DNA of 64,000 bases, from NCBI GenBank assembly GCA_943356745.1, contig CALRFT010000003.1, positions 10,853 to 74,852 on the forward strand. The letters run 5' to 3'. This DNA is from Parcubacteria group bacterium (GTDB taxonomy: Bacteria > Patescibacteriota > Minisyncoccia > Phycocordibacterales > CSBR16-119). The notes under the pieces are model-generated. The model saw nothing but the letters and a program-made list of their open reading frames with translations. It ran no database searches and was not told the DNA's origin. This document shows positions 31,802-43,596 of this stretch, piece after piece; the stretch's first letter is position 1; every line of letters begins with the position of its first letter. Both the position numbers and the translations under genes were made by a program.

Positions 31802-33691
31802 TTATTCTACGACTCTGTCGTTATTTGCATTATACTCAGTATCTCTTGAAAGACTAGAGTTGAGTTGACCAAATGTTTTTGAAACAATATCTCCAGTGAA
31901 AGCATCTTTAGCTTCGAGACTTCCAGAAGAGATAATTGTTGGTAAGGTTTGTATTTGAGAAACTGATGGAATAAATCCAACTTTAAAATATATTTTTTTT
32001 GAACCTGAAGCCCCTGGGGTAATTTCTCCAGCATTCCATGTGAGTCTTCTGTTAATTGAATTGTATGAAATATTTGCATCTTCTGGGAAAGATTCACCTT
32101 TCCAAGTTATATATGAAGGAAGATCAGCAACAACTTTTACATCATCGAGACTACTCGTTGTTGATGAGACTGTCCATTCGACGGTATATGTTGTTTCTTC
32201 TCCAACCTTTGGAGGAAGAGTTCCACTATTCACAAATGGTCCATTATTGAAAAATAGAGCATTTGAAATAGAAACATCAGAAGCAACTCGAATCACTCCA
32301 TTGTAAATATTACTTACCTCTTCAGGTTGTGTACCTTGTCCAACAATAACTCCTTTTGCATCAATAGCAACTGATATTGTTGGGTTTGCAACCCCAGCTT
32401 TTGGAATAAGAGAGAAATAAAGTTGGCCTGTTTTTCCAGGAGAAATGTTGTTAAGATTACTGTTATTATTTTGATTCCAAATAATTCTACCTTGATTATT
32501 ATCAAAAAATCCTTGGTTTACAGTTACTCTAGTTGGGTCAAAACCATTTCCAGAAAATCGAGCTGTGATCTCCAAAGAAGAAAGTGAGGTATCAAGTTCA
32601 TTTTCCCAATCAATTGTAAATGTTGTTTCTCCTGTTGAAGAAACGATAAACTGGTTTGACTTTGTTTGACCAGTCGAAAGTTCTGCTGAAACAAATGGGG
32701 TGCCAATTTCTATCGCAAGCGGTGTTGCGGTAAACTGAACTCCAATTTCTTGTTCATCGTCTGGATTTTGACTTCCAGAAATAACAGTAATGATTCTTTC
32801 TTCACCATTACTTGCTCGAATTGATCCTTGAATTTGAATTGTTTTTTCAACTCCCGGTGCTAAATCCCCCAAAACCCAGGTATCGTTTCCAAAGTCAGGT
32901 TCTGGACTCGCACTTTCAAATTTGAATCCTGAAGGATATGTCACAACAAGCATCATGTTTTCTGTTACTTCTGTACTATTTTGAATAACAGTAATATCTG
33001 TTGAAAATAACTGATTTGAAACAACATTTTCTGGACCTTCAACAATAACATCAACTGGTGATGTTGCTATCGTTACCTGATAATCATATTCTTTTACGAA
33101 AATAGCATTTGAATTTTCAACTCGATATTCAAGTGTAAATGTTACATCTCGCACAGAACCCTGTTCTCCAAAGATAGCAATTTCTACAATATCCTCCGCA
33201 ATATCTCCACTTTTAATTTCCCCAAGAGAAACACGTTCTCGAACAATATCTTCTGCACCACCAACTCCTTTTGAATACTCAACAAGAATATCGGCAATTT
33301 CAATATTTGTTCTATTTCTGTTTGCAACCTTGATTTGAAGAGGAAGTTCTTCCCCACCATCAACAAATGAGTTTCCAAGAACAACAATATCAATATTATT
33401 GTTTGAAATTGTTGTACCACCTTGGAAAAAAGTAAAGAAAGCAAAAATCATTGAACCCAAGAAAAAAGCAATCGCCACCATAAAAAGGTTACGGAAATTT
33501 TTTGAGTGCATTAAATGTTTTTTTCTTTTTTTAGTTGGCATTTGATTATCACCACTCCACGCGGATGGAATAGTTGAAACACTGTCATGTAACTCATGTC
33601 TTGTAACTTGTTTTGGTTCCCGACCACGAACATAGAGTTCGCGTTCACTCATTTCTAATTTATCGGGAATGATTTTTTTTCTTTCTTCCAT
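31802..33691 (-). CDS. large membrane-anchored hypothetical protein with repeated beta-sandwich (DUF11/CARDB-like) domains
   Basis: 629 aa with a basic N-terminus and one TM (..FMVAIAFFLGSMIFAFFTFF..). It then has ~540 aa of T/S/V/N-rich beta-strand repeats. Confidence 0.5.
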   Translation of the reverse strand: MEERKKIIPDKLEMSERELYVRGREPKQVTRHELHDSVSTIPSAWSGDNQMPTKKRKKHLMHSKNFRNLFMVAIAFFLGSMIFAFFTFFQGGTTISNNNIDIVVLGNSFVDGGEELPLQIKVANRNRTNIEIADILVEYSKGVGGAEDIVRERVSLGEIKSGDIAEDIVEIAIFGEQGSVRDVTFTLEYRVENSNAIFVKEYDYQVTIATSPVDVIVEGPENVVSNQLFSTDITVIQNSTEVTENMMLVVTYPSGFKFESASPEPDFGNDTWVLGDLAPGVEKTIQIQGSIRASNGEERIITVISGSQNPDDEQEIGVQFTATPLAIEIGTPFVSAELSTGQTKSNQFIVSSTGETTFTIDWENELDTSLSSLEITARFSGNGFDPTRVTVNQGFFDNNQGRIIWNQNNNSNLNNISPGKTGQLYFSLIPKAGVANPTISVAIDAKGVIVGQGTQPEEVSNIYNGVIRVASDVSISNALFFNNGPFVNSGTLPPKVGEETTYTVEWTVSSTTSSLDDVKVVADLPSYITWKGESFPEDANISYNSINRRLTWNAGEITPGASGSKKIYFKVGFIPSVSQIQTLPTIISSGSLEAKDAFTGDIVSKTFGQLNSSLSRDTEYNANNDRVVE

Positions 33692-33712: not shown

Positions 33713-34300
33713 TTAGAGATGACTTTCACGAAGAGACTGTTTAATTCTTTCCAAAAGCTCATATTTTTTTTGACTTGTTCTATCTAAGGTTTCTCTTGTA
33801 AAGGCTGAATTATGTAAACTGTATGATTCTTTAAACTCTTCCCAATATCCAAGACGATGGAGAATCTTGATTGTTACCAAAATCTCAATCGCCTCTATTG
33901 TCTCACTATCAAAGGTTTTTGAAATTTTAAGACAAGCTTCATAGATATCAGAAAAAAGACTTTCTTGAGATTCTTCTCCAACATACAACCTTCGAAGCAA
34001 ATTCGCGATTCTTGAGATAGATTCCTGTGCCTTTTTTGAAAAACCGGCAAAGGTTACTTGTTCTCCATCAAACGGTAATGCGTTGGTAATTCTCCAAACA
34101 TCCTTTCCTCGCACAAACTCGATAACTGAAAAAGAGTACTGTTGGAGGAAGGGATTGAGTTTTGATGTAGTAGAACGAACCCCTTGAGCGCTTGCATGTA
34201 TGAGTCCAAAGTCCTGTGTCACAATCCAAAAAAACCGGTTTTTTTCACCTGTATCCATTGCGTCAATAATGAAACCTGGGTTTTGATGGATTGTATACAT
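33713..34300 (-). CDS. recO: DNA repair protein RecO (short form)
   Basis: N-terminal OB-fold pattern (GFIIDAMDTGEKNRFFWIVTQDFGLIHASAQGVRSTTSKL..PF..) resembles RecO. 195 aa and apparently lacking the zinc-binding tail. Confidence 0.55.
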   Translation of the reverse strand: MYTIHQNPGFIIDAMDTGEKNRFFWIVTQDFGLIHASAQGVRSTTSKLNPFLQQYSFSVIEFVRGKDVWRITNALPFDGEQVTFAGFSKKAQESISRIANLLRRLYVGEESQESLFSDIYEACLKISKTFDSETIEAIEILVTIKILHRLGYWEEFKESYSLHNSAFTRETLDRTSQKKYELLERIKQSLRESHL

Positions 34301-37300
34301 TAACGGATTGAAATACTTACTTTGTAATCTTCAAGATCAACAACCTCACCTTCTTTTTCTTCAAAAATAAATTTCTCTACCTGAGCAAGTTGTTTTATTT
34401 CTGAACTAAATGTTTCCACTAAATCTTGAGCCTCTGGCGACACCACGAGTGTGATTATTTGTTTTGGAGAAAGATCTTTTTTCTTTCGAAGATCTTGGAT
34501 TGCACGAAGGAGTTCTCTGTATTTTCCTTCACGTTTTAATTCTTCTGTAAGATTGGTATCAAGAGAGATTTCTTTAGCAACTAGAACTTCTTTCACATTA
34601 AGTTCATCTTCAATAATTTCAAGATATTCTCTTTGAAGATTTTCTGTGATGGTGAAACTTTGGAGTGGTTGACGTACTTTTACACCAGACTTTTGCCGGA
34701 GTAGAAGACCCTGACTTGCAAGATCTCGAGTGAGTTTCATTGCACTCAAAATACTTGTATCGAACGAAGAAACCTGTGGCCAATCACACAGATGAACAGA
34801 TTCTGGATCATTTTCTTCTTTCACTGTTTGATACACCTCTTCAGCAACAAACGGAATATATGGCGCTGCAACCTTTGCAAATTCTTTCAAAACAAATCGA
34901 GTCGTTGAAAGCGCAGCTGCCTTATCTTCGCCATCACTCTTGAATCTGTCTCGTGAACGACGAACATACCATGTTGAAAGATCGTCAACAAAATCAAAGA
35001 GTGGCCTTGCTCCTTTGTCGATGAGGTAGCTTTCAAGCCCTTCTTCAACATCTCGAATCGTTTCATAGAGTCTTGCGAGAATCCACTTATCGAGAATATT
35101 TTGACTTTGGTTGTGGGCTCTTTCTCCAGCACTATACATTTCATAAAATGTCGCTGAGTTTCTGTATCGTCCCATCACCTTACTCTGAACCTCACTCACT
35201 GTTTTTTCACTAAAGTTTACATCTTCTGCGTGAACCGCAGGACTCGCCATGAGAAACAGTCGAAGTGCATCTGCTCCCTCTTTGTCGATCATATGGTTGA
35301 GATCTGGATAGTTCTTGAGACGTTTTGCCATTTTCTTTCCATCTTCGGCAAGTACGAGTCCATTTACCAAAACATTTTTAAATGCTGGTTGATCAAACTG
35401 TGCACTCGCAAGAACCATCATCACATAAAACCAACCCCGTGTTTGGTCTTGTCCTTCTGCAACGAAGTCCGCTGGGAAACGTTTTGTTTTTTTAAACAAA
35501 CCTTTCTTTGGTTGAAACCGTGAATCATCAAATGGATAGTGATGTGACGCATACGGCATAGAACCACTATCAAACCATACATCAAACACATCTGGAATTC
35601 GTTTGTATGATTCTCCATCTTTTTCAATTTTGAAATTGTCGATATATGGACGATGGAGATCAAGTTCTCGAAGTCTTGTATTGTCGACAAACAAAGTGAC
35701 TGGTACCGCGTTTCCAGTAAGCGCAGGATTACTAAAAATTGATGAAACAGCATCTTCATTTGAAATACCTTTCAAAAGTTTCATCATTGAAGAACCTGTT
35801 CCCTGATGTGAAAACACAACCACTGTTTGCCCAGGATGCTTTGCAATAATATCTCTCAAAAAATCTTCTGTTCTATCATCTAGATCTTTCCAAGATTCTC
35901 CTGTTCCACCACGCTTGAAAAGATATCGTTCCTCTACTGGAAGATTTTTATATGCATCTCTTTCAGCTTTCACCTCTGGATCAAACTGTGTTTTCTCTTC
36001 CCAATTTCCTGAAGTAATTTCTTTCAGTCTGTCATCAAAAATAATTTCCTTTCCAGATTTTTTTGTGTAATGTTCTGCAGTTTGTTTTACTCGAAGTATT
36101 GGAGATGAATACACAACATCAACTTTTTCTTTCACAATTTTTTCTGCCGCCTTTTCAGCTTGAGAGTGTCCAAGTTCAGTGAGTGGATGTTTATCAAGCG
36201 CTGAAGAAGAAATTTCTTTAACATTATGTTCTGCTTGTCCGTGTCGTACAAAAATAATTTTTGTAATTTGCCCTTGTGCATTTTCTCGCAAATCTTCGAT
36301 TGAGCCCAAGATGAGTTTCTTTCCCGATTCACTTTCCCAGATTGGAAGTGGCGTTCCCCAAAACCGCGCTCGTGATACTGACCAATCTCGAACTTCTTCA
36401 AGCCACTTTCCAAAACGACCATCTTTAATATGGTTTGGAACCCAATTTGTTTTTTGGTTATTTTTGATAAGTTTTTCTTTTACCTTTTGCACGTTCACAA
36501 ACCAACTCTCTGTCGCGTAGTTGATGAGTGGACAATCTGTTCGCCAACACACAGGATAGCTGTGAGTATATTTTTTCTTTTCGAAAAGTTTTCCATTTCG
36601 TGCGAGGTATTTTACAATCTCAACATCAACATGCTGGTGATCTGTCACGTTTCGCACTGCCCAACCTTTGACATCGTATCCAGCTTCTACCAAAAAGTTT
36701 TCTACTTCTGATACAAAATGTCCGTCCATTTTCACATGGTGGATTGGTTCTACTTTTTCTTTTTGACCAAGATTTAGGTCGTCTTGTCCAAAGCCTGGTG
36801 CAATATGCACGATTCCTGTTCCGTCTTCTGTAGTAACAAAATCCCCCGCAACAACTCGAAATGCGTTTGCGTGGTTTTTGTAAATTGGGAAAATTGGTTC
36901 GTATGTTGAACCGATGAGATCTTTTCCTTGGAATGTTTTTTCAACTGAATATTCTTTTTGGGCCACAGCTGACTCGAGAAGTTTTGAAGCAATAATATAT
37001 TTTTGATCTCCAATTACAACCACAGAATATTCAATCTCCTCTCCCACCGCCAAAAGCACATTCCCTGGAAGTGTCCACGGAGTTGTTGTCCACGCTACCA
37101 TATGTGCTCCTTTGTGTGGACCACTCGTCAAAGTGAAGTTTGCATACACAGAAATATCAGTAATGTCTTTGTATCCTCCCATGTTTACTTCTTGATTTGA
37201 AAGCACTGTTTCAAGTGGAGGAGAAACCATCATCGACTTATAGCTTTTGTAGACCAAACCTTGGTCATCAAGATTTTTGAATACAGCCCATACACTTTCC

Positions 37301-37764
37301 ATAAATTCTGGATCCATCGTTTTGTATGGATTGTCCATGTCTACAAATCTTCCAACTCGCGGAATATATTCTTTCCAATCTGTCTCATATCGAAGAACAC
37401 TCGCCCGTGCGGCTTGGTTGAACTTTTCGATTCCATACTCAACAATGTCCTGGTTTGTTGGAAGGTTCAGTTCTTTTTGGATGAGGTTTTCAATCGGAAG
37501 CCCGTGACAATCCCAACCCCACTGACGTGGAACATGGAAACCTTTCATGGTTTTATATCGTGGAATCACATCTTTCATTGTTCCCGGCAAAAGATGTCCG
37601 TAGTGTGGAAGTCCTGTTGCGTATGGAGGTCCATCGAAAAATACAAACTCACCTTCTGGTGAATCTTTTTGCAAAGACTTTTGGAAAATATTTTGGTCCT
37701 TCCAAAACTTCAATATTTTTTCTTCTACTAATGCAACTTGTGATTTTTTTTGTTCTTCGTTCAT
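34300..37764 (-). CDS. ileS: isoleucyl-tRNA synthetase with an inserted ~200-aa histidine phosphatase (phosphoglycerate-mutase-like) domain
   Basis: HIGH region (PHYGHLLPG), CP1 editing domain (TTTPWTLPGN) and KMSKS variant (KMAKR). Between ..PIWESESGKK.. and ..LDLHRPYID.. sits a complete histidine-phosphatase domain with RHG (IIFVRHGQAEHN), SSPILRVKQTAEH and a second His (VVFSHQG). Start is at the Met at 37764; the track ORF runs 35 codons further into the T-box terminator. Confidence 0.85.
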   Translation of the reverse strand: MNEEQKKSQVALVEEKILKFWKDQNIFQKSLQKDSPEGEFVFFDGPPYATGLPHYGHLLPGTMKDVIPRYKTMKGFHVPRQWGWDCHGLPIENLIQKELNLPTNQDIVEYGIEKFNQAARASVLRYETDWKEYIPRVGRFVDMDNPYKTMDPEFMESVWAVFKNLDDQGLVYKSYKSMMVSPPLETVLSNQEVNMGGYKDITDISVYANFTLTSGPHKGAHMVAWTTTPWTLPGNVLLAVGEEIEYSVVVIGDQKYIIASKLLESAVAQKEYSVEKTFQGKDLIGSTYEPIFPIYKNHANAFRVVAGDFVTTEDGTGIVHIAPGFGQDDLNLGQKEKVEPIHHVKMDGHFVSEVENFLVEAGYDVKGWAVRNVTDHQHVDVEIVKYLARNGKLFEKKKYTHSYPVCWRTDCPLINYATESWFVNVQKVKEKLIKNNQKTNWVPNHIKDGRFGKWLEEVRDWSVSRARFWGTPLPIWESESGKKLILGSIEDLRENAQGQITKIIFVRHGQAEHNVKEISSSALDKHPLTELGHSQAEKAAEKIVKEKVDVVYSSPILRVKQTAEHYTKKSGKEIIFDDRLKEITSGNWEEKTQFDPEVKAERDAYKNLPVEERYLFKRGGTGESWKDLDDRTEDFLRDIIAKHPGQTVVVFSHQGTGSSMMKLLKGISNEDAVSSIFSNPALTGNAVPVTLFVDNTRLRELDLHRPYIDNFKIEKDGESYKRIPDVFDVWFDSGSMPYASHHYPFDDSRFQPKKGLFKKTKRFPADFVAEGQDQTRGWFYVMMVLASAQFDQPAFKNVLVNGLVLAEDGKKMAKRLKNYPDLNHMIDKEGADALRLFLMASPAVHAEDVNFSEKTVSEVQSKVMGRYRNSATFYEMYSAGERAHNQSQNILDKWILARLYETIRDVEEGLESYLIDKGARPLFDFVDDLSTWYVRRSRDRFKSDGEDKAAALSTTRFVLKEFAKVAAPYIPFVAEEVYQTVKEENDPESVHLCDWPQVSSFDTSILSAMKLTRDLASQGLLLRQKSGVKVRQPLQSFTITENLQREYLEIIEDELNVKEVLVAKEISLDTNLTEELKREGKYRELLRAIQDLRKKKDLSPKQIITLVVSPEAQDLVETFSSEIKQLAQVEKFIFEEKEGEVVDLEDYKVSISIR

Positions 37765-37789
37765 GATATGTATAAAAGCTAATAAATTG

Positions 37790-38010
37790 ATAAATAAAAA
37801 AACTCGCCCACAGAAATAAGTACAAAGACTTATTTCCAAGGGCGAGTTTTCTGTTTCCCGCGGTACCACCTTGTTTGATGCGGGAAAATGGCTTTGCCAT
37901 TTTCCCGCATCCTCATTACAGCTATTTCGGGCTTACCCGCCAAGTTCTACTTCCTTTAAAGGTTTCTTCTTGAAGCTCTGGAGTGATTAGTTCCTTCAAC
38001 GCTTGTAATT
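37790..38010 (-). promoter_or_regulatory. T-box riboswitch leader of ileS (boundaries approximate)
   Basis: The minus-strand RNA contains the conserved T-box core ..AAGGUGGUACCGCGGGAAAC.. (plus 37857..37870). It is followed directly by an intrinsic terminator (gggcgag...ctcgccc plus U-run, about 37797..37850) that ends about 30 nt before the ileS ATG. The 5' part contains an AGAG motif and candidate Ile specifier triplets. Confidence 0.8.
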
Positions 38011-38123: not shown

Positions 38124-38597
38124 CTACAACCAGCAAAAAAGAATCTCGCGAAAAATTCCATCTACTATTGTTTTTCGCTCTGGGTTGCAAAAAATTTTAC
38201 CACCCTTAGAAATAAGAATTAGACCAACACGAGTGTCAGAATGACGCTTTTTGATTGAATCCAAAACTACCTTTTCGAGGTAATTAATCAAATAGTTAAG
38301 TTTTTCATATTCAGATGAAAGACGAAGCTCAACAACTATTTCTGGTATACACATCTCATGATATTGAGTGATTTTCTTGTAAAGAAGGGTACTCACAGCT
38401 TTCTCAAAATCATTCATTTCCCCAAAGAAAAGTGGAAATGTTACTTCTTTAGGTTCATTATTATTGATAATACCCACTTTAGTTCCAGCATAAAGAAGCT
38501 CATTGTTCACTGTTTCGATTTCCTCCTGAGAAATTGAAAGGAGTTCGCCAATCCAGGTGTCATCCAGGCTTGCAAGGGTTTTTTGATTGTAATCCAT
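38124..38597 (-). CDS. hypothetical protein
   Basis: 157 aa, soluble, no family recognised. Confidence 0.45.
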   Translation of the reverse strand: MDYNQKTLASLDDTWIGELLSISQEEIETVNNELLYAGTKVGIINNNEPKEVTFPLFFGEMNDFEKAVSTLLYKKITQYHEMCIPEIVVELRLSSEYEKLNYLINYLEKVVLDSIKKRHSDTRVGLILISKGGKIFCNPERKTIVDGIFREILFCWL

Positions 38598-38671: not shown

Positions 38672-40357
38672 TTACATCCTCTCCAAATATTTAATTCCCA
38701 AAAGATGAAGTCCGTTTCCGATTGTTGTTGCAACGGACTGAGTGAGCCAAAGATTGTAAGAAACATTCAAATTTTCTTCATCAAGAATTTTTGTATTTCC
38801 ATACCAAGAATTAAACTCTCGCGCAAGTATCAAAAGATAGGTTGCAACATGATGCGGTTCCCATAACTTTTGAGAAGCTTCCACAACCTCAGGAAAACGA
38901 CAGAGATATTTTTCAAGATCAGAAACTTTTTCATCTTGTAGTTTTTGTGGTCTTGGTGCCAAGTTCATCCCCTTTCCTTTCTCGATAATAGAAAGACATC
39001 GAGCAACAGTATATTGCAAATATGGACCAGAATCTCCTTCAAAAGAAAGTGAAGTTTCTGGATCAAAATCAATATTTTTTCCAGCCATTGCTTTCAAGAT
39101 TGAAAACTTAATCGCAGCAATAGAAATTGCGTCAATTTTTTGAGTGTCATTTTTGTCTTCCAATCTTTCTTTCACCTCTTCCCCCACAGTCTCCAAAACC
39201 TCACTTGCAAGCGGAACACCGCCAAGCCGTGAAGACATTTTCTTTCCCTTGAAAGTCATTCTTCCATGAGTTCTATGGATTGTTTTTTCTTTCCACTCTG
39301 GTTTGATTTCACCCGCAGCTTCAAGCACTACTTTGTAGTATGAAGATTGTTCATTGTCAGTAATAAGAATAGAGGTGTTGGGATTATATCGAGAAAATTT
39401 AATATCAAGAAGTCCAATATCCTTCGCTTCGTATGTTGGATATCCTTCACTATTAATAAATACTCTCGTATGAAGCCCACGCGCTTCTCCGTCAAAAATA
39501 ACAGCTCCGTCAGATTCTTGGAATACTGTTCCAATATTTTCTTTCACAATTTCTCGTCCGCGCGCCCCAGCCTCACTTTCAAAAATGAATTCATGAAATG
39601 AAGAACCAAGTCTTTTTGTTTCTCCCAAGAAATATTCAAGATTTATTTCCTTTCCTTTCAAGTATGCAGAAAATTCTCTCCCTTCTTCTTTTTCATAAAT
39701 CTTTCGAGTAATCTCTTTTATCTCTTTTTGAATTTCTTCGCTTTCCTCAAATGCTTTTGTTCCATCAACATAGCACTGTCCCAAGAAATTGAGTTTTTCT
39801 TCAACAGTTTCAAGAGTCGAAAGATTTCCTTCACCTTTTTGCAAAAGACTCCACACAGCCTTTCCGATTCCCAAAGAAACATCAGATGGATATGAAATTT
39901 TCAAAACCTTTGCGCCTGAATATTCTGCGAGTCTCACAATTGACTCACCAACAGTATTGTTCATCACGTGACCAATGTGAAATGGTTTGAAAAGATTTGG
40001 GCTTGAATGTTCCACCACAATAGTGTCACCTTTTCGTGATTCATTTTTTCCATATTCAGAATCAATCTCAGAAATTGTTTCGTAGAAAATTTCAGGAGAA
40101 AGAAAGAAATTGATAAATCCAGGACCAGCAACTTCCACCTTTTCAATTCCTTGCACAGAAGAAATTTGAGAAACAATCTGTTCTCCAATTTCTCGTGGAT
40201 TTTTCCCAAGAATTTTTCCGTATCGCATCGCAACATTTGTTGCAAAGTCTCCATGAGAAAGCTCTCCAGGATGCTCAAAAGAAACCTCAGGGTTTGGAAC
40301 CCCAAGATCTTTCAAAATTTCAGATATTATTTTTGTAAGTGTTTCCAAAATTTTCAT
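38672..40357 (-). CDS. argS: arginyl-tRNA synthetase
   Basis: ..SPNLFKPFHIGHVMNNTVGESI.. (HIGH) and the ArgRS anticodon-binding C-terminus (..YLERM). Start is at the internal Met 40357 (MKILETLTKII..); the track ORF extends to 40459. Confidence 0.9.
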   Translation of the reverse strand: MKILETLTKIISEILKDLGVPNPEVSFEHPGELSHGDFATNVAMRYGKILGKNPREIGEQIVSQISSVQGIEKVEVAGPGFINFFLSPEIFYETISEIDSEYGKNESRKGDTIVVEHSSPNLFKPFHIGHVMNNTVGESIVRLAEYSGAKVLKISYPSDVSLGIGKAVWSLLQKGEGNLSTLETVEEKLNFLGQCYVDGTKAFEESEEIQKEIKEITRKIYEKEEGREFSAYLKGKEINLEYFLGETKRLGSSFHEFIFESEAGARGREIVKENIGTVFQESDGAVIFDGEARGLHTRVFINSEGYPTYEAKDIGLLDIKFSRYNPNTSILITDNEQSSYYKVVLEAAGEIKPEWKEKTIHRTHGRMTFKGKKMSSRLGGVPLASEVLETVGEEVKERLEDKNDTQKIDAISIAAIKFSILKAMAGKNIDFDPETSLSFEGDSGPYLQYTVARCLSIIEKGKGMNLAPRPQKLQDEKVSDLEKYLCRFPEVVEASQKLWEPHHVATYLLILAREFNSWYGNTKILDEENLNVSYNLWLTQSVATTIGNGLHLLGIKYLERM

Positions 40358-40376
40358 ATCAATACTATACCTCAAA

Positions 40377-40799
40377 TTACACTCCCGTGCTACCAAAACC
40401 TCCCTCTCCTCGAGACGAATCTGAAAGCTCTGAAACCTCTTCAATTTCAGCTTGTACAATTGGTTGTATTAAACCTTGCGCAACCTTTTTCCCTTTCTCA
40501 AAGGTGTAGGGTTCTTGCCCAAGATTTATTACAGCAATTTGAAGTTCTCCTCGATATCCCGAGTCAATCACACCAGCGATTGTTGTCACACCTCCCTTTG
40601 TTGAAATCCCGCTTTTGTCCCACACTAAAAATACATAACCTTCCGGAAATTCCATAGAGATGCCTGTTTTTACCAGCCCACGTTCACCGGGATTTAAAGT
40701 GAGAGTTTCTGACGCAAAAATATCCATCCCTGCGTCTCCCTTTTTTGCATAACTTGGAAACACCGCGTCACTGTGAAGTTTTTTGATTTTGAGTTTCAT
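40377..40799 (-). CDS. dut: dUTP diphosphatase (trimeric dUTPase)
   Basis: MKLKIKKLHSDAVFPSYAKKGDAGMDIFA.., ..GVIDSGYRGEL.. and C-terminal motif V ..RGEGGFGSTG. Start is at the internal Met 40799. Confidence 0.9.
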   Translation of the reverse strand: MKLKIKKLHSDAVFPSYAKKGDAGMDIFASETLTLNPGERGLVKTGISMEFPEGYVFLVWDKSGISTKGGVTTIAGVIDSGYRGELQIAVINLGQEPYTFEKGKKVAQGLIQPIVQAEIEEVSELSDSSRGEGGFGSTGV

Positions 40800-40884
40800 A
40801 TTTAAATTGTACTCGGATGACCCAAAATCACAAACCTTGCACATCCAGCTTGTTTTCTATAGACTGAGGGAAAATTTATGCACT

Positions 40885-41415
40885 ATGAACAAAAACGCAA
40901 TTGACTGGTTTGATGAAATTGTTGAACCCTGTAAGAAAACAGCTCAAGAAAAAGCACAAAGCTATGGAAGTAGCTGGACCTGGTATCGAGCAAGAAGTCT
41001 TGTTGATCGTATTTTTAGTAAAGCAAAACGAATACGAACCATTCAAGACACTGGTGAAAACAAGGTTGGAGAATCAATCCAAAGTGAATTTGAAGCAATT
41101 TTGAATTATTCAGTAATGTTTCTCATTCAATCAAAACGTAAATTTCAACCAGAAAATCTTTCATCAGATGAAGTTTTGAAACAATATGAGGAAAATCTCC
41201 TCGTATGTAAAACACTCATGAAAAAGAAAAACCATGACTATGGTGAAGCATGGCGTGATATGTCACAGGTTGGAATTGTTGATGAAATCATCGTAAAGCT
41301 TGAACGAGTAAAACAATTACTCAAAGAAAAACAAGATGTGAGCGACAATATCCCAGATGTTACAAACTACGCTATTTTCGCCCTCATCTTGATCAAAGAA
41401 GGACGAGAAGATTGA
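40885..41415 (+). CDS. hypothetical all-alpha protein in the thymidylate cluster
   Basis: 177 aa from the in-frame ATG at 40885 (MNKNAIDWFDEI..). Helical with no confident family. Its placement between dut and the ThyX-like genes suggests a nucleotide-metabolism accessory. Confidence 0.45.
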   Translation: MNKNAIDWFDEIVEPCKKTAQEKAQSYGSSWTWYRARSLVDRIFSKAKRIRTIQDTGENKVGESIQSEFEAILNYSVMFLIQSKRKFQPENLSSDEVLKQYEENLLVCKTLMKKKNHDYGEAWRDMSQVGIVDEIIVKLERVKQLLKEKQDVSDNIPDVTNYAIFALILIKEGRED

Positions 41416-41425
41416 AAATTTAATT

Positions 41426-41457
41426 AACCGCCCGCGCTTTGCGCGAGCGGTTTTTTC
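41426..41457 (+). terminator. hairpin ccgcccgcgc-tttgc-gcgagcgg plus T-run
   Basis: GC-rich stem plus U-run. Followed by a TTGACC -35-like element upstream of the next gene. Confidence 0.65.
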
Positions 41458-41517
41458 TATTTGACCAAATCAAACCAAATAAGGTAAGCTTGGGGAAACC
41501 AATTAAATTTAAGTTCT

Positions 41518-42396
41518 ATGACACATGTAAAACTCGTACAACCACTTGAAACAACTGGTATCCATATTCGAGATCAGTATTCTCCAGAAGACACCGCAAT
41601 GATGCAAGCTCTTTATTCGCGAAGTCCTGACAGTGTTCTTAACCATGAAAAAAAGGTTGAGGAACAAGGATCTGAAAAATTTATGGATATATTCTATGTG
41701 GGATATGACCATAAAAGTATCGGTGATTGTGGGACCACAACCATCTTTATAGAAGGAGTCAGTATGATCACCGCAAAAATTTTGCAAGATTGGCAACTCT
41801 ACAGTGGACAAGAAGCAAGTACCCGGTATCTCGACTGGTCAAAACAATCTGTTATTGATCCTCTGAATACTGAACTTTCAAGAAGCATCATCCAAAAGAT
41901 GATGAACTTCTATGCTTGGGCTCAACCTAAGCTTGTAGAATTTTTGAAAGAAAAGTACGCAATGAAAGAAGGAGAAACAGAAAAGCAATACGAAAAAGCA
42001 ATCAATGCTCGTTCGTTTGACATCCTCCGTGGATTCCTTCCTTCCGGCGCACAAACCAATCTTTCATGGCACACAAATCTTAGACAAGCTGGTGACAAAC
42101 TTCAAAAGATGATTCACCATCCGCTACCAGAAGCTCGCATACTTGCAGAAAAAATCCTCTTACAACTTAAGGAAAAGTACACAGGAAGCTTTAACTTTCG
42201 TGACTATCCTGAAGGTGAAGAGTACACAAAAATGGAAATGGAAGAACTTGCTTTTTATGATCCTTGGTATGTTAATAAACCAACCCATGTCATGGATGGC
42301 GAAGTTTCTATGAAAACACAAATATGTGCAATGGATCTTCTTCCGTTTAAAAAATTCATTGACCAGAGACCTAAGTACACAAATCTCCCTGTTTAA
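41518..42396 (+). CDS. ThyX (Thy1, flavin-dependent thymidylate synthase)-like protein, divergent
   Basis: 292 aa. N-terminus ..MMQALYSRSPD.. matches the ThyX ..AARVSY.. region. ..ITAKILQDWQLYSGQEASTRY.. aligns position-for-position with the ThyX motif ARQWFRHRIASYNELSGRY but has DWQ in place of RHR. ..NLSWHTNLRQAGDKL.. matches the ThyX ..FFWTVNARSLMNFLNLR.. helix. Confidence 0.65.
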   Translation: MTHVKLVQPLETTGIHIRDQYSPEDTAMMQALYSRSPDSVLNHEKKVEEQGSEKFMDIFYVGYDHKSIGDCGTTTIFIEGVSMITAKILQDWQLYSGQEASTRYLDWSKQSVIDPLNTELSRSIIQKMMNFYAWAQPKLVEFLKEKYAMKEGETEKQYEKAINARSFDILRGFLPSGAQTNLSWHTNLRQAGDKLQKMIHHPLPEARILAEKILLQLKEKYTGSFNFRDYPEGEEYTKMEMEELAFYDPWYVNKPTHVMDGEVSMKTQICAMDLLPFKKFIDQRPKYTNLPV

Positions 42397-42411
42397 ACTG
42401 ATGAACTTGGA

Positions 42412-42864
42412 ATGATTACATGGGAATTCTTACTGGATTTTGGGTCTTTTCGTGATCTTCAACGCCACAGAAAAGGTGTTTGCCGTATTCCGAAACTCAC
42501 AGTTAAGTATGGTTTTGAATCTTGGTACCTTGATCAGCTTTCTCCAGAAATTAAAGAAGAGGCAGAAAATCTTCTTCGTGAAATTGAAAGTGACATTGTC
42601 GAATTGGGCGACGGACTTGAAGTTCAGTATTACATACCAATGGGATACAAAATCCCCTGCAAAAATACGTATGGGTTAATGGCAACTGTATACATCACTG
42701 AACTTCGTTCAGGAAAAACAGTTCATCCTACCATGAGAAAAATTGCCCAAGGTATGTATGAGAGACTTATGGAAAAGTTTCCCAATCTCAAACTCTACAC
42801 CGACCTCAGCGAAGATGAATTCTCGTATAAAAGAGGTGGTCAGGATATTATTGAGAAAAAGTAA
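42412..42864 (+). CDS. second, shorter ThyX-like domain protein retaining the RHR motif
   Basis: 150 aa. ..EFLLDFGSFRDLQRHRKGV.. matches the ThyX ..FTFHVKAPIFVARQWFRHR... C-terminal ..RKIAQGMYERLMEKFP.. matches ThyX ..ALAIARIFKEKCP... It is in the same reading frame as 41518..42396, separated only by one TAA codon (42394..42396). Confidence 0.6.
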   Translation: MITWEFLLDFGSFRDLQRHRKGVCRIPKLTVKYGFESWYLDQLSPEIKEEAENLLREIESDIVELGDGLEVQYYIPMGYKIPCKNTYGLMATVYITELRSGKTVHPTMRKIAQGMYERLMEKFPNLKLYTDLSEDEFSYKRGGQDIIEKK

Positions 42865-42866
42865 TT

Positions 42867-42896
42867 TAAAAACCCTGCACGTTTGCGGGGTTTTTC
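42867..42896 (+). terminator. hairpin ccctgc-acgttt-gcgggg plus T-run
   Basis: Stem plus U-run. Followed by a TTGACT -35-like element. Confidence 0.6.
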
Positions 42897-42960
42897 TTAT
42901 TTGACTAGACAGTCTTAAAAAGGTAATGTTTACAAAAAGTTCAATTAAATCTATAACACC

Positions 42961-43596
42961 ATGAGACTTTCTGCTATCGATATCAAAAAAGGAATCAATA
43001 AAGGATCTATTACTGTTGACCCATTGTTTCCCAATGCCATACAACCAGCAACAGTTGACCTCCATCTTGGAAGACACTTTCTTGTATTTGAAGCATCAAA
43101 CTTAAAATCACTTGATTTAACAAAACCAATGGAAGAACACATGCGGAAAGTAACACTTGATGAAAACCACCCAGAGTTTGTTCTTCATCCACACAAGTTC
43201 GCGCTCGGGATTACACACGAACTTATAGGGACTGACCTTGGTCACTGTTGCAAGATAGACGGAATTAGTTCGATTGCACGCGCAGGGATTTTTGTTCACA
43301 TCACAGCAAGCAACATCAATCCAGGTCACAAACTTCATGTAACTTTAGAACTATTCAATGCTCTTGAGGTTCCTGTTGCACTTCATTGGGGTATGCCTAT
43401 TGCACAGATGGAGTTTTATCAACTTAAAACCCCACTCACAAAAAATGACGTTTACAAAGGTAATTTTTCAACTGTTAGTAAACAATCCCCGACCGCAAGT
43501 CAGTACTTTAAAAACTACTTGCCAGAAAAAAGTGAATGGATAAAATTTATGTGTAAAATACATGGAATTAATCCAATAACATTTGAAAGAACCTAG
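42961..43596 (+). CDS. dcd: dCTP deaminase
   Basis: ..PATVDLHLGRHF.. and ..KIDGISSIARAGIFVHITA.. are dCTP deaminase/dUTPase-superfamily motifs; 211 aa. Confidence 0.85.
   Translation: MRLSAIDIKKGINKGSITVDPLFPNAIQPATVDLHLGRHFLVFEASNLKSLDLTKPMEEHMRKVTLDENHPEFVLHPHKFALGITHELIGTDLGHCCKIDGISSIARAGIFVHITASNINPGHKLHVTLELFNALEVPVALHWGMPIAQMEFYQLKTPLTKNDVYKGNFSTVSKQSPTASQYFKNYLPEKSEWIKFMCKIHGINPITFERT

Follow-up and report, generated by a model that had tools for sequence, protein, structure and literature searches.

The closest described counterpart of the enzyme reported here is the type-2 isoleucyl-tRNA synthetase (IleRS) of Priestia megaterium (PmIleRS2; PDB 8C8U), which combines a HUP catalytic core, a CP1 editing domain, a zinc-knuckle connective peptide, an anticodon domain and type-2 C-terminal domains. 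A second group of described relatives comprises the histidine phosphatases PhoE (1H2E), PspA (iPSP1; 4IJ5), CobC (6E4B) and GpgP (6S2Q), free-standing proteins of about 200 amino acids (aa) that act on metabolites. Here we analyse a 64,000-nucleotide (nt) stretch of DNA from a Parcubacteria group bacterium (assembly GCA_943356745.1, contig CALRFT010000003.1, positions 10,853 to 74,852; hereafter the window), in which the IleRS gene, ileS, joins both kinds of enzyme in one protein. The window protein shares the whole domain organisation of PmIleRS2; unlike PmIleRS2, it has a 200-aa phosphatase in place of about 6 residues, lacks the knuckle cysteines and reads KMAKR instead of KMSKS/KMSKR. Unlike the PhoE/PspA/CobC/GpgP enzymes, its phosphatase is nested in a synthetase and ends in a C-terminal return strand of about 25 aa that leads back to the host loop. 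We favour, with a probability of roughly 0.7, a reading of this protein as a working type-2 IleRS with a nested, catalytically competent branch-1 histidine phosphatase that is dedicated to the class Ia synthetase system.

Aminoacyl-tRNA synthetases are among the most conserved enzymes, and those of bacteria rarely gain extra catalytic domains; to our knowledge, none has been described with such a domain nested inside its catalytic domain. Family names provide two precedents. NF040702, 'isoleucine--tRNA ligase, N-acetyltransferase domain-containing', couples an IleRS to an enzymatic domain, and NF005567, 'bifunctional RNase H/acid phosphatase', places a branch-1 histidine phosphatase on a nucleic-acid enzyme; the window protein belongs to neither family (scores of 282 against a cutoff of 1999 and 84 against 326). 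An initial annotation of the window, made from its sequence, knew of no described IleRS with an embedded PGAM-like phosphatase, and our searches of the open-access and bioRxiv literature, including recent papers on IleRS evolution and structure, likewise found no description of an IleRS with a nested histidine phosphatase. It is a real architecture, widespread and uncharacterised, built from two well-known families.

A histidine phosphatase nested in a type-2 IleRS

The minus-strand open reading frame (ORF) 34300-37869, whose first GTG is at 37869, contains the entire ileS gene. The start is the ATG at 37764, common to homologues (the proteins open MNEEQKKS), which gives a coding sequence at 34300-37764 (minus strand; stop codon 34300-34302) and a product of 1154 aa, a type-2 (eukaryote-like, MupA/B-like) IleRS with a nested phosphatase domain. 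Residues 1-500 (36265-37764, minus strand) carry HIGH within the first part of the catalytic fold, then the CP1 editing domain and the N-terminal portion of the zinc-knuckle connective peptide, from WGTPLPIW to GSIEDL. The branch-1 histidine-phosphatase domain follows at aa 501-701 (35662-36264, minus strand). Residues 702-1154 (34303-35661, minus strand) begin with the remainder of the zinc knuckle (DLHRPYID...) and DVWFDSG, continue with the KMAKR half of the catalytic fold and close with the anticodon-binding domain and, as the type-2 C-terminal domain, DUF5915. Pfam models follow the same order, with tRNA-synt_1 at aa 16-497 resuming after the insert, His_Phos_1 at aa 503-675, Anticodon_1 and DUF5915, and the TIGR00392 ileS equivalog scores 838.9 bits against a cutoff of 621.4 in two stretches divided by the insert.

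The synthetase itself appears complete. The HIGH, CP1 editing and KMSKS elements, described as intact by the initial annotation, were all located. The HIGH motif is HYGH (aa 54-57; 37594-37605), and the CP1 motifs WTTTPWTLPGN (aa 225-235) and GTGIVHIAP (aa 315-323) are invariant or nearly so, in a region that aligns with structures of the isolated editing domain, 1WK8 and 1UE0. In place of KMSKS the enzyme has KMAKR (aa 811-815; 35320-35334), where most homologues read KMSK; K811, M812 and K814 are invariant across 112 homologues, and position 813 is mostly S. A type-2 C-terminal organisation (DUF5915/ARD3, lacking a zinc-binding domain at the C terminus) is indicated by PF19302 (DUF5915) at aa 1066-1153 and by the best PDB matches, which are IleRS2 and eukaryotic IleRS. 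The MupA and MupB models rank second and third in an NCBIfam scan, each below its own 'exception' cutoff, so the window ileS is not a Mup resistance gene. A full-length AF2 model built with the 112 homologues has a pLDDT of 92.9 and a pTM of 0.84, with 92-98 in the insert region. By these signatures the protein is a functional-looking type-2 IleRS2 for which aminoacylation is predicted.

Alignment to 8C8U, the best solved-structure match (E 7e-200), places the insertion precisely. Residues 14-497 correspond to chain residues 14-479 and aa 701-1065 to 486-852, so that the 200-aa domain takes the place of a loop of about 6 residues, in agreement with the short connective peptide that the initial annotation expected at this site. 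The phosphatase thus occupies a surface loop in the zinc-knuckle connective peptide, with WGxPxPxW on one side and DLHRPYID/DVWFDSG on the other. In PmIleRS2, the catalytic core resumes at residue 513 (PMC10485003), which puts the insertion site within the last connective-peptide element. We take this element to be the 'CP2' of that naming and the 'CP3' of the yeast IleRS naming (PMC11685878).

The knuckle of relatives has a CxxC ahead of the loop and a CxC or CxxC after HRPYID. In a 196-sequence set of insert-bearing relatives, which adds species loci to a 119-homologue alignment made without a motif filter and is preselected on RH(G/A), all four cysteines are kept in 54 sequences and lost in 133, including the window protein. 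There the corresponding positions (aa 469-480 and 706-720; 36330-36360 and 35610-35650) read WESESGKK... and KIEKDGESYK.

The inserted domain was recognised by His_Phos_1 (PF00300) at aa 503-675 with an E value of 1.4e-37 and 129.7 bits against a cutoff of 21.7, inside tRNA-synt_1, which it divides in two. The initial annotation had described a complete branch-1 histidine phosphatase at 35665-36264; with PF00300 well above its cutoff and a complete catalytic set, that description holds, and our boundaries of 35662-36264 agree with that span. The motifs quoted there were found in their places, with WGTPLPIW starting at aa 469 (36360), KIIFVRHG at aa 502 (36261), SSPILRV at aa 553, VVFSHQG at aa 649, LHRPYID at aa 703 (35658) and DVWFDSG at aa 728. 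Modelled alone, the insert reaches a pLDDT of 93.5 with the alpha/beta fold of the histidine phosphatase superfamily and folds as an independent domain. In the AF2 model, its terminal beta-strand (aa 688-694) heads back toward the host synthetase.

Superposition of the insert model gave 24.7 for the metal-independent phosphoserine phosphatase PspA (4IJ5), 23.6 for both glucosyl-3-phosphoglycerate phosphatase (6S2Q) and PhoE (1H2E), and 22.7 for CobC (6E4B), and a sequence-profile search puts the same group (PspA, GpgP, PhoE, CobC) first. PspA (NF045917; 78 against 350) and CobC (TIGR03162; 83 against 162.9) are nearest neighbours, and the insert is a member of neither. Its place in the Pfam/PGAM superfamily, and the label 'probable phosphoglycerate mutase' that JGI pipelines give to insert fragments, could also suggest a cofactor-dependent phosphoglycerate mutase (dPGM) that supplies a glycolytic step in a reduced genome. 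This is very unlikely, as every dPGM equivalog score is far under its cutoff (dPGM_arch 94 against 225, GpmB 49 against 261, PRK01295 35 against 316 and PRK14119 35 against 378). Moreover, the second-histidine motif of the insert is SH(Q/G)G, as against HGN in mutases. Since no dPGM or GpmB equivalog cutoff is reached and the best matches in sequence and fold are phosphatases, the insert is best classified as a branch-1 histidine phosphatase of the PhoE/PspA/CobC kind, a predicted phosphomonoesterase and not a phosphoglycerate mutase.

The reading frame runs uninterrupted across the insert, with IleRS sequence on both sides. An identical protein (P0121) is present in NCBI and ENA, an N-terminally longer call of the same gene (P0242) occurs on 4 contigs of up to 458 kb from independent public assemblies, and homologues at 86-88% identity with the same architecture come from other samples. 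The insert has a GC content of 0.36-0.37, slightly under that of its flanks, and a search of its edges for boundary repeats, a sign of mobile elements, found none. The continuous frame, the identical protein in independent assemblies and the homologues from elsewhere exclude a chimera or frameshift, and the genuine fusion proposed by the initial annotation stands as one ORF. An artefact of assembly or gene calling that joined two genes has a negligible probability: apart from one related locus, L086, where the gene is split into several calls, we found no support for it, and hundreds of orthologues with the same junctions, together with the absence of boundary repeats, speak against it.

Conservation, spread and recurrence of the insert

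The predicted catalytic set of the insert comprises R507, H508, N514, R558, E582 and H653. The RHG motif (R507-H508-G509) is encoded at 36238-36246 and contributes H508, the predicted phospho-accepting nucleophile. R558 (codon 36091-36093), the phosphate-binding arginine of the SSPxxR motif, and H653 (35806-35808), which lies in SH(Q/G)G and is the second catalytic histidine, are both invariant in the 196-sequence set. E582 (36019-36021), in an L-x-E-x3-G motif, is the predicted general acid and is E in 190 and D in 6 of these sequences; all four codon positions are on the minus strand. S554 is likewise conserved at 100%, N514 at 97%, and E623 and R631 at 99.5%. R507 and H508 also reach 100% there, by construction of a set chosen on RH(G/A), and their unbiased support comes from the 119 homologues and from 80 species loci retained for close inspection from a scan of GTDB genomes.

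Across the 119 unfiltered homologues, R507, H508, S554, R558, E623, R631 and H653 are invariant, and G509, N514, E582 and G586 are conserved at 97% or more. At the species loci, the R and H of the motif are present in 80 of 80, as RHG or RHA. The initial annotation had tied its reading to conservation of the RHG and His residues in orthologs; R507 and both histidines prove invariant. At the same time, the insert is the least conserved region of the enzyme, with a mean column identity of 0.43 compared with 0.51-0.75 elsewhere (119 homologues). Catalytic residues that stay fixed while their scaffold drifts are the pattern expected of a working active site, and the insert phosphatase is apparently active, with its catalytic residues under strong purifying selection in hundreds of Paceibacteria species.

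We then followed the architecture across databases and genomes. PF00133 and PF00300 occur together in all 120 best full-length database matches (46-88% identity), which span 937-1207 aa and, except for one partial sequence, are all at least 1117 aa long. With one genome scanned per species, at least 251 GTDB species encode the insert plus its junction, so the insert, which the initial annotation proposed to trace through a clade, is shared within the Paceibacteria/Parcubacteria. At the 80 inspected loci, the insert always lies inside a long class I synthetase ORF, and in the great majority this is a single ORF longer than 1000 aa; contig ends account for about ten shorter ones. The spacing is also kept, with RH(G/A) about 38 residues past WGxPxPxW and about 195 residues ahead of HRPYID. 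Named sources are Nomura-, Zambryski-, Nealson-, Colwell-, Taylor- and Yonathbacteria and Minisyncoccia (Paceibacterota/Parcubacteria). A single bulk submission accounts for the many 'uncultured Candidatus Saccharibacteria' labels, which we distrust as taxonomy. The proteins are named 'class I tRNA ligase family protein' or 'Isoleucine--tRNA ligase' (UniRef A0A2H0QWZ9) in databases.

At one locus, L086:1-3563, an insert-bearing ileS is called as five genes (58, 212, 187, 290 and 254 aa), a splitting that may reflect frameshifts, assembly errors or an alternative genetic code. One candidate free-standing phosphatase, P0264, was rejected, as it is actually the insert of this split gene.

A profile of the insert matched 738 cluster representatives (clusters at 50% identity) at E <= 1e-30 among 1.84 billion, and among the 144 best new representatives 120 are hosted by IleRS and 122 by a synthetase. 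Within IleRS, the domain appears to be exchanged independently of its host. Outside the insert, P0132, P0133 and P0134 match the window IleRS at 77-80% identity, but inside it at only 27-31%; for P0127 the figures are 79% and 72%. Two insert types can thus be told apart at the same site in close backbones: type A, the window-like form, reads ...KRGxTGESW..., and type B reads ...PxGES...ELDFxPLPHNxNYELD. The catalytic residues are kept in both. The comparison of P0132, P0133 and P0134 with the window suggests cassette-like replacement of the phosphatase at one site.

Additional copies are found at further positions. In P0375, an IleRS, one domain occupies the usual site and another follows KMSKS, where the anticodon-binding domain begins; two other IleRS proteins (P0428 and P0407) have a copy behind DxWxDS and another behind KMSKS, and in P0387, P0401 and P0398 the usual site holds copies in tandem. 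Valyl-tRNA synthetase (ValRS) also acts as a host, on the strength of two cluster representatives. P0459, a ValRS by NF004349 (849 bits against a cutoff of 704), has one domain after its editing region and another between WWGHQIPVW and DTWFSS, a site homologous to the IleRS insertion site, and the ValRS-like fragment P0367 contains four copies. A metagenome scan returned no close relatives of the ValRS-with-phosphatase junction. Overall, some IleRS and ValRS proteins carry 2-4 phosphatase domains, with at least three insertion sites among class Ia synthetases, and by sequence comparison the same domain family is repeatedly recruited into these enzymes.

Several copies in one protein could suggest binding or scaffolding, and the insert might then be a non-catalytic pseudo-enzyme, structural or RNA/phosphate-binding, that aids tRNA binding. 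We consider this highly improbable, because the full catalytic set, nucleophile and general acid included, is kept in nearly every copy; among the top representatives, 143 of 165 domain instances match the RHNREERH catalytic signature exactly, and the others mostly differ at one position. Pseudo-enzymes usually lose at least one catalytic residue.

Tandem double phosphatases of about 360-430 aa also exist as free-standing proteins close to the insert profile (P0448, P0453, P0463, P0485, P0487, P0497, P0500, P0503 and P0510).

Free-standing relatives and a proposed role in the synthetase system

The gene order in the window is dut, argS, a 157-aa ORF, the T-box, ileS with its phosphatase, recO and a DUF11 protein. 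Among the 80 insert-bearing loci, most of the remainder being cut off by contig ends, argS lies upstream in 55, recO downstream in 57 and the DUF11 protein downstream in 56. Within the flank of about 4 kb on each side of the match, all 80 lack a second phosphatase gene. A search for short proteins with the insert profile recovered free-standing phosphatases of about 190-200 aa, and the closest of these, P0262, P0263, P0270 and P0273, are nearly as near to the inserts (mean distance 0.68-0.72) as the inserts are to one another (0.66).

These four genes lie in familiar surroundings. In L087/L088, argS is followed by the phosphatase P0273, whose start overlaps the argS stop, and then by ileS (935 aa), a 99-aa ORF, recO and a gene for a DUF11-like protein. 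P0263 in L081/L082 stands between argS and a 203-aa ORF followed by ileS; P0262 in L091 comes after a partial ORF and is followed by a 203-aa ORF, ileS (969 aa) and recO; and P0270 in L092 stands between argS and the gene for a 445-aa protein. In three of the four, the phosphatase is at most one gene ahead of an insert-less ileS. The L087 type differs from the window in that its phosphatase is a separate ORF and the neighbouring IleRS has no insert, whereas the window has the nested form in the same syntenic cluster. The L087 IleRS (935 aa) shares 50% identity with the window enzyme N-terminal to the insertion site and 45% C-terminal to it, and it lacks precisely aa 501-701, with the junction at its residues 498|500. 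The presence of the domain in the same cluster, either as a separate ORF or as an insert, makes the nested form evolutionarily continuous with an operon-partner gene. By synteny and sequence, the insert is the nested form of the phosphatase gene that is found as a separate ORF in the argS-phosphatase-ileS-recO cluster of related lineages.

A neighbour-joining tree of the phosphatase domains left insert monophyly and the direction of nesting unsettled. A neighbour-joining tree of IleRS backbones, computed with no support values, nests the insert-less L087 enzyme within the insert-bearing group, beside a Zambryskibacteria sequence. Such a position would imply repeated insertion, replacement or allele exchange, and we treat it as a lead only.

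An operon-partner form, divergent versions at one site and 2-4 copies in IleRS or ValRS together give the phosphatase the appearance of a partner dedicated to class Ia synthetases. In the mechanism that we propose, IleRS would activate isoleucine, edit and charge tRNA-Ile as usual, while the nested domain would act on a phosphomonoester. H508 would attack as nucleophile to form a phospho-histidine intermediate, R507, R558, N514 and H653 would hold the phosphate, and E582 would serve as the general acid that protonates the leaving group. The phosphatase would serve the synthetase system rather than general metabolism, with a substrate tied to class Ia synthetases. The likeliest substrates would be a tRNA 3' end blocked by phosphate or a nucleotide that the synthetase handles; the phosphorylated synthetase itself is a second candidate, and an ordinary metabolite is less likely.

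Some observations pull the other way. Of seven free-standing relatives examined, three sit elsewhere: P0277 near dnaK/relA, P0326 after a PolX-like gene and P0281 among NUDIX, HAD and Maf genes. Linkage of the free-standing phosphatase to argS/ileS is thus frequent and not universal. The nearest characterised relatives act on phosphoserine, 3-phosphoglycerate (3-PG), alpha-ribazole-5'-phosphate and glucosyl-3-PG, not on RNA or protein. Furthermore, neighbouring genes in very small genomes may owe their adjacency to history and not to function.

The third substrate preference corresponds to a fusion of convenience, in which a small-molecule housekeeping phosphatase of the PhoE/PspA type, acting for example on phosphoserine or a sugar-phosphate, was by chance a neighbour of ileS and was captured in a permissive loop. 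The phosphatase would then be independent of the synthetase, and the fusion would merely secure co-expression. The metabolite phosphatases that make up the closest solved and curated relatives are consistent with this account, as are the nucleotide-metabolism or unrelated neighbourhoods of some free-standing relatives and the clear permissiveness of the loop, which is short in 8C8U, has often lost its zinc ligands and tolerates tandem copies. Nevertheless, we judge it unlikely, though deserving of serious consideration, because the same family recurs in two class Ia synthetases, occupies at least three sites, reaches four copies and accompanies argS/ileS as an operon partner, a pattern that is hard to explain without a functional tie, and 122 of the 144 top cluster representatives are synthetase-hosted.

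Within the reading of a dedicated synthetase partner, we can also picture, as a speculative and rather improbable extension, that class Ia synthetases carry the nested phosphatases as cis-acting 'repair or immunity' modules, which would remove inhibitory phosphoryl groups from the tRNA 3' end or from the synthetase. tRNA-pyrophosphorylating toxins are a possible source of the former and HipA-like kinases of the latter. If so, cassette swapping, copy numbers of 1-4 and multiple sites in IleRS and ValRS would be the footprints of an arms race in epibiotic bacteria.

The ileS leader, flanking genes and significance

Upstream of ileS, at 37835-38008 (minus strand), lies a T-box-like leader with a Stem II region, a long Stem III and a AAGGUGGUACCGCG box. 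Its Stem I consists of a 3-bp stem with a 9-nt loop, ACUAAUCAC, which contains AUC-A, a candidate isoleucine specifier. A long hairpin followed by a U-run (AAAACUCGCCC...GGGCGAGUUUUUUU; 37797-37853, minus strand) overlaps the 3' end of the T-box sequence in the minimum-free-energy fold and is the presumed terminator; a simple terminator scan missed it because its loop is long. The leader folds more stably than shuffled controls (z = -6.1), and a AAGGUGGUACCGCG box directly upstream of ileS also occurs in L005, L010, L014 and L059.

In a permissive search, the RF00230 model matched the leader with 62.5 bits (E 2.4e-13) against a gathering threshold of 93. The distal part of Stem I is absent, with 76 nt of the RF00230 Stem I model replaced by 7 nt. 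An Rfam scan at the gathering threshold reported no T-box in the window, where it found three tRNAs only, nor in 16 related loci, and with a score below this threshold the leader would be missed by standard annotation. The initial annotation had called the gene T-box regulated. The AAGGUGGUACCGCG box, the AUC-A loop and the hairpin with its U-run support that claim, whereas the sub-threshold RF00230 score leaves it short of a formal family match; the leader is likely of the T-box type, in an atypical form with a short Stem I. T-box leaders with a very short Stem I have reportedly been described for actinobacterial ileS and are said to be translational. These and the window leader share a specifier in the terminal loop (in the window the candidate AUC-A), the T-box sequence and a position upstream of ileS; the window leader, however, ends in a terminator-like structure.

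The flanking genes of the cluster are all on the minus strand. Upstream, argS (arginyl-tRNA synthetase; 38672-40459) matches the Pfam families Arg_tRNA_synt_N, tRNA-synt_1d and DALR_1. Between argS and the ileS leader, the 157-aa ORF (38124-38597) has no Pfam match and occupies the slot that holds the free-standing phosphatase gene in related lineages (L087, L081, L091). Downstream, the start of the recO-like gene (33713-34300; Pfam RecO_N) overlaps the ileS stop and is followed by the last conserved cluster member, a 629-aa DUF11/CLIPPER-repeat protein (31802-33691; PF01345) with an apparent N-terminal membrane anchor.

The 203-aa ORFs in the argS-ileS interval of two related loci (L081:6731-7342 and L091:1622-2233) also have no Pfam match and look unrelated to the 157-aa ORF of the window. 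The insert-less IleRS enzymes of the same loci (L081:7486-9411 and L091:2419-5328) are about 34% identical to the window enzyme and have GVHH as their first signature motif. Motifs of this GXHH type are discussed for mupirocin-hyper-resistant IleRS2 in PMC10485003.

Further upstream of argS, a deoxynucleotide-metabolism cluster spans 40377-43596, followed by rplK and nusG. It includes a dUTPase (40377-40844, minus strand) and, on the plus strand, a DUF1599 'nucleotide modification associated' protein (40783-41415), a ThyX-like protein (41518-42396) and a dCTP-deaminase-like protein (42961-43596). A further link to nucleotide chemistry is P0355 (318 aa), in which a CTP_transf_like (PF01467) nucleotidyltransferase is fused to an insert-related histidine phosphatase.

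JGI pipelines name fragments of the insert 'probable phosphoglycerate mutase' or 'broad specificity phosphatase PhoE' (P0001, P0259, P0262-P0265 and others), labels that could place a false glycolytic or phosphatase gene in metabolic reconstructions of Patescibacteria. Natural controls for the nested enzyme exist in the insert-less IleRS of the L087 type and in the split version, the free-standing gene of the argS-phosphatase-ileS operon. Throughout an entire class of the Candidate Phyla Radiation, an apparently active phosphatase is kept inside or beside class Ia synthetases, which points to a phosphorylation-related step tied to tRNA charging in these bacteria.

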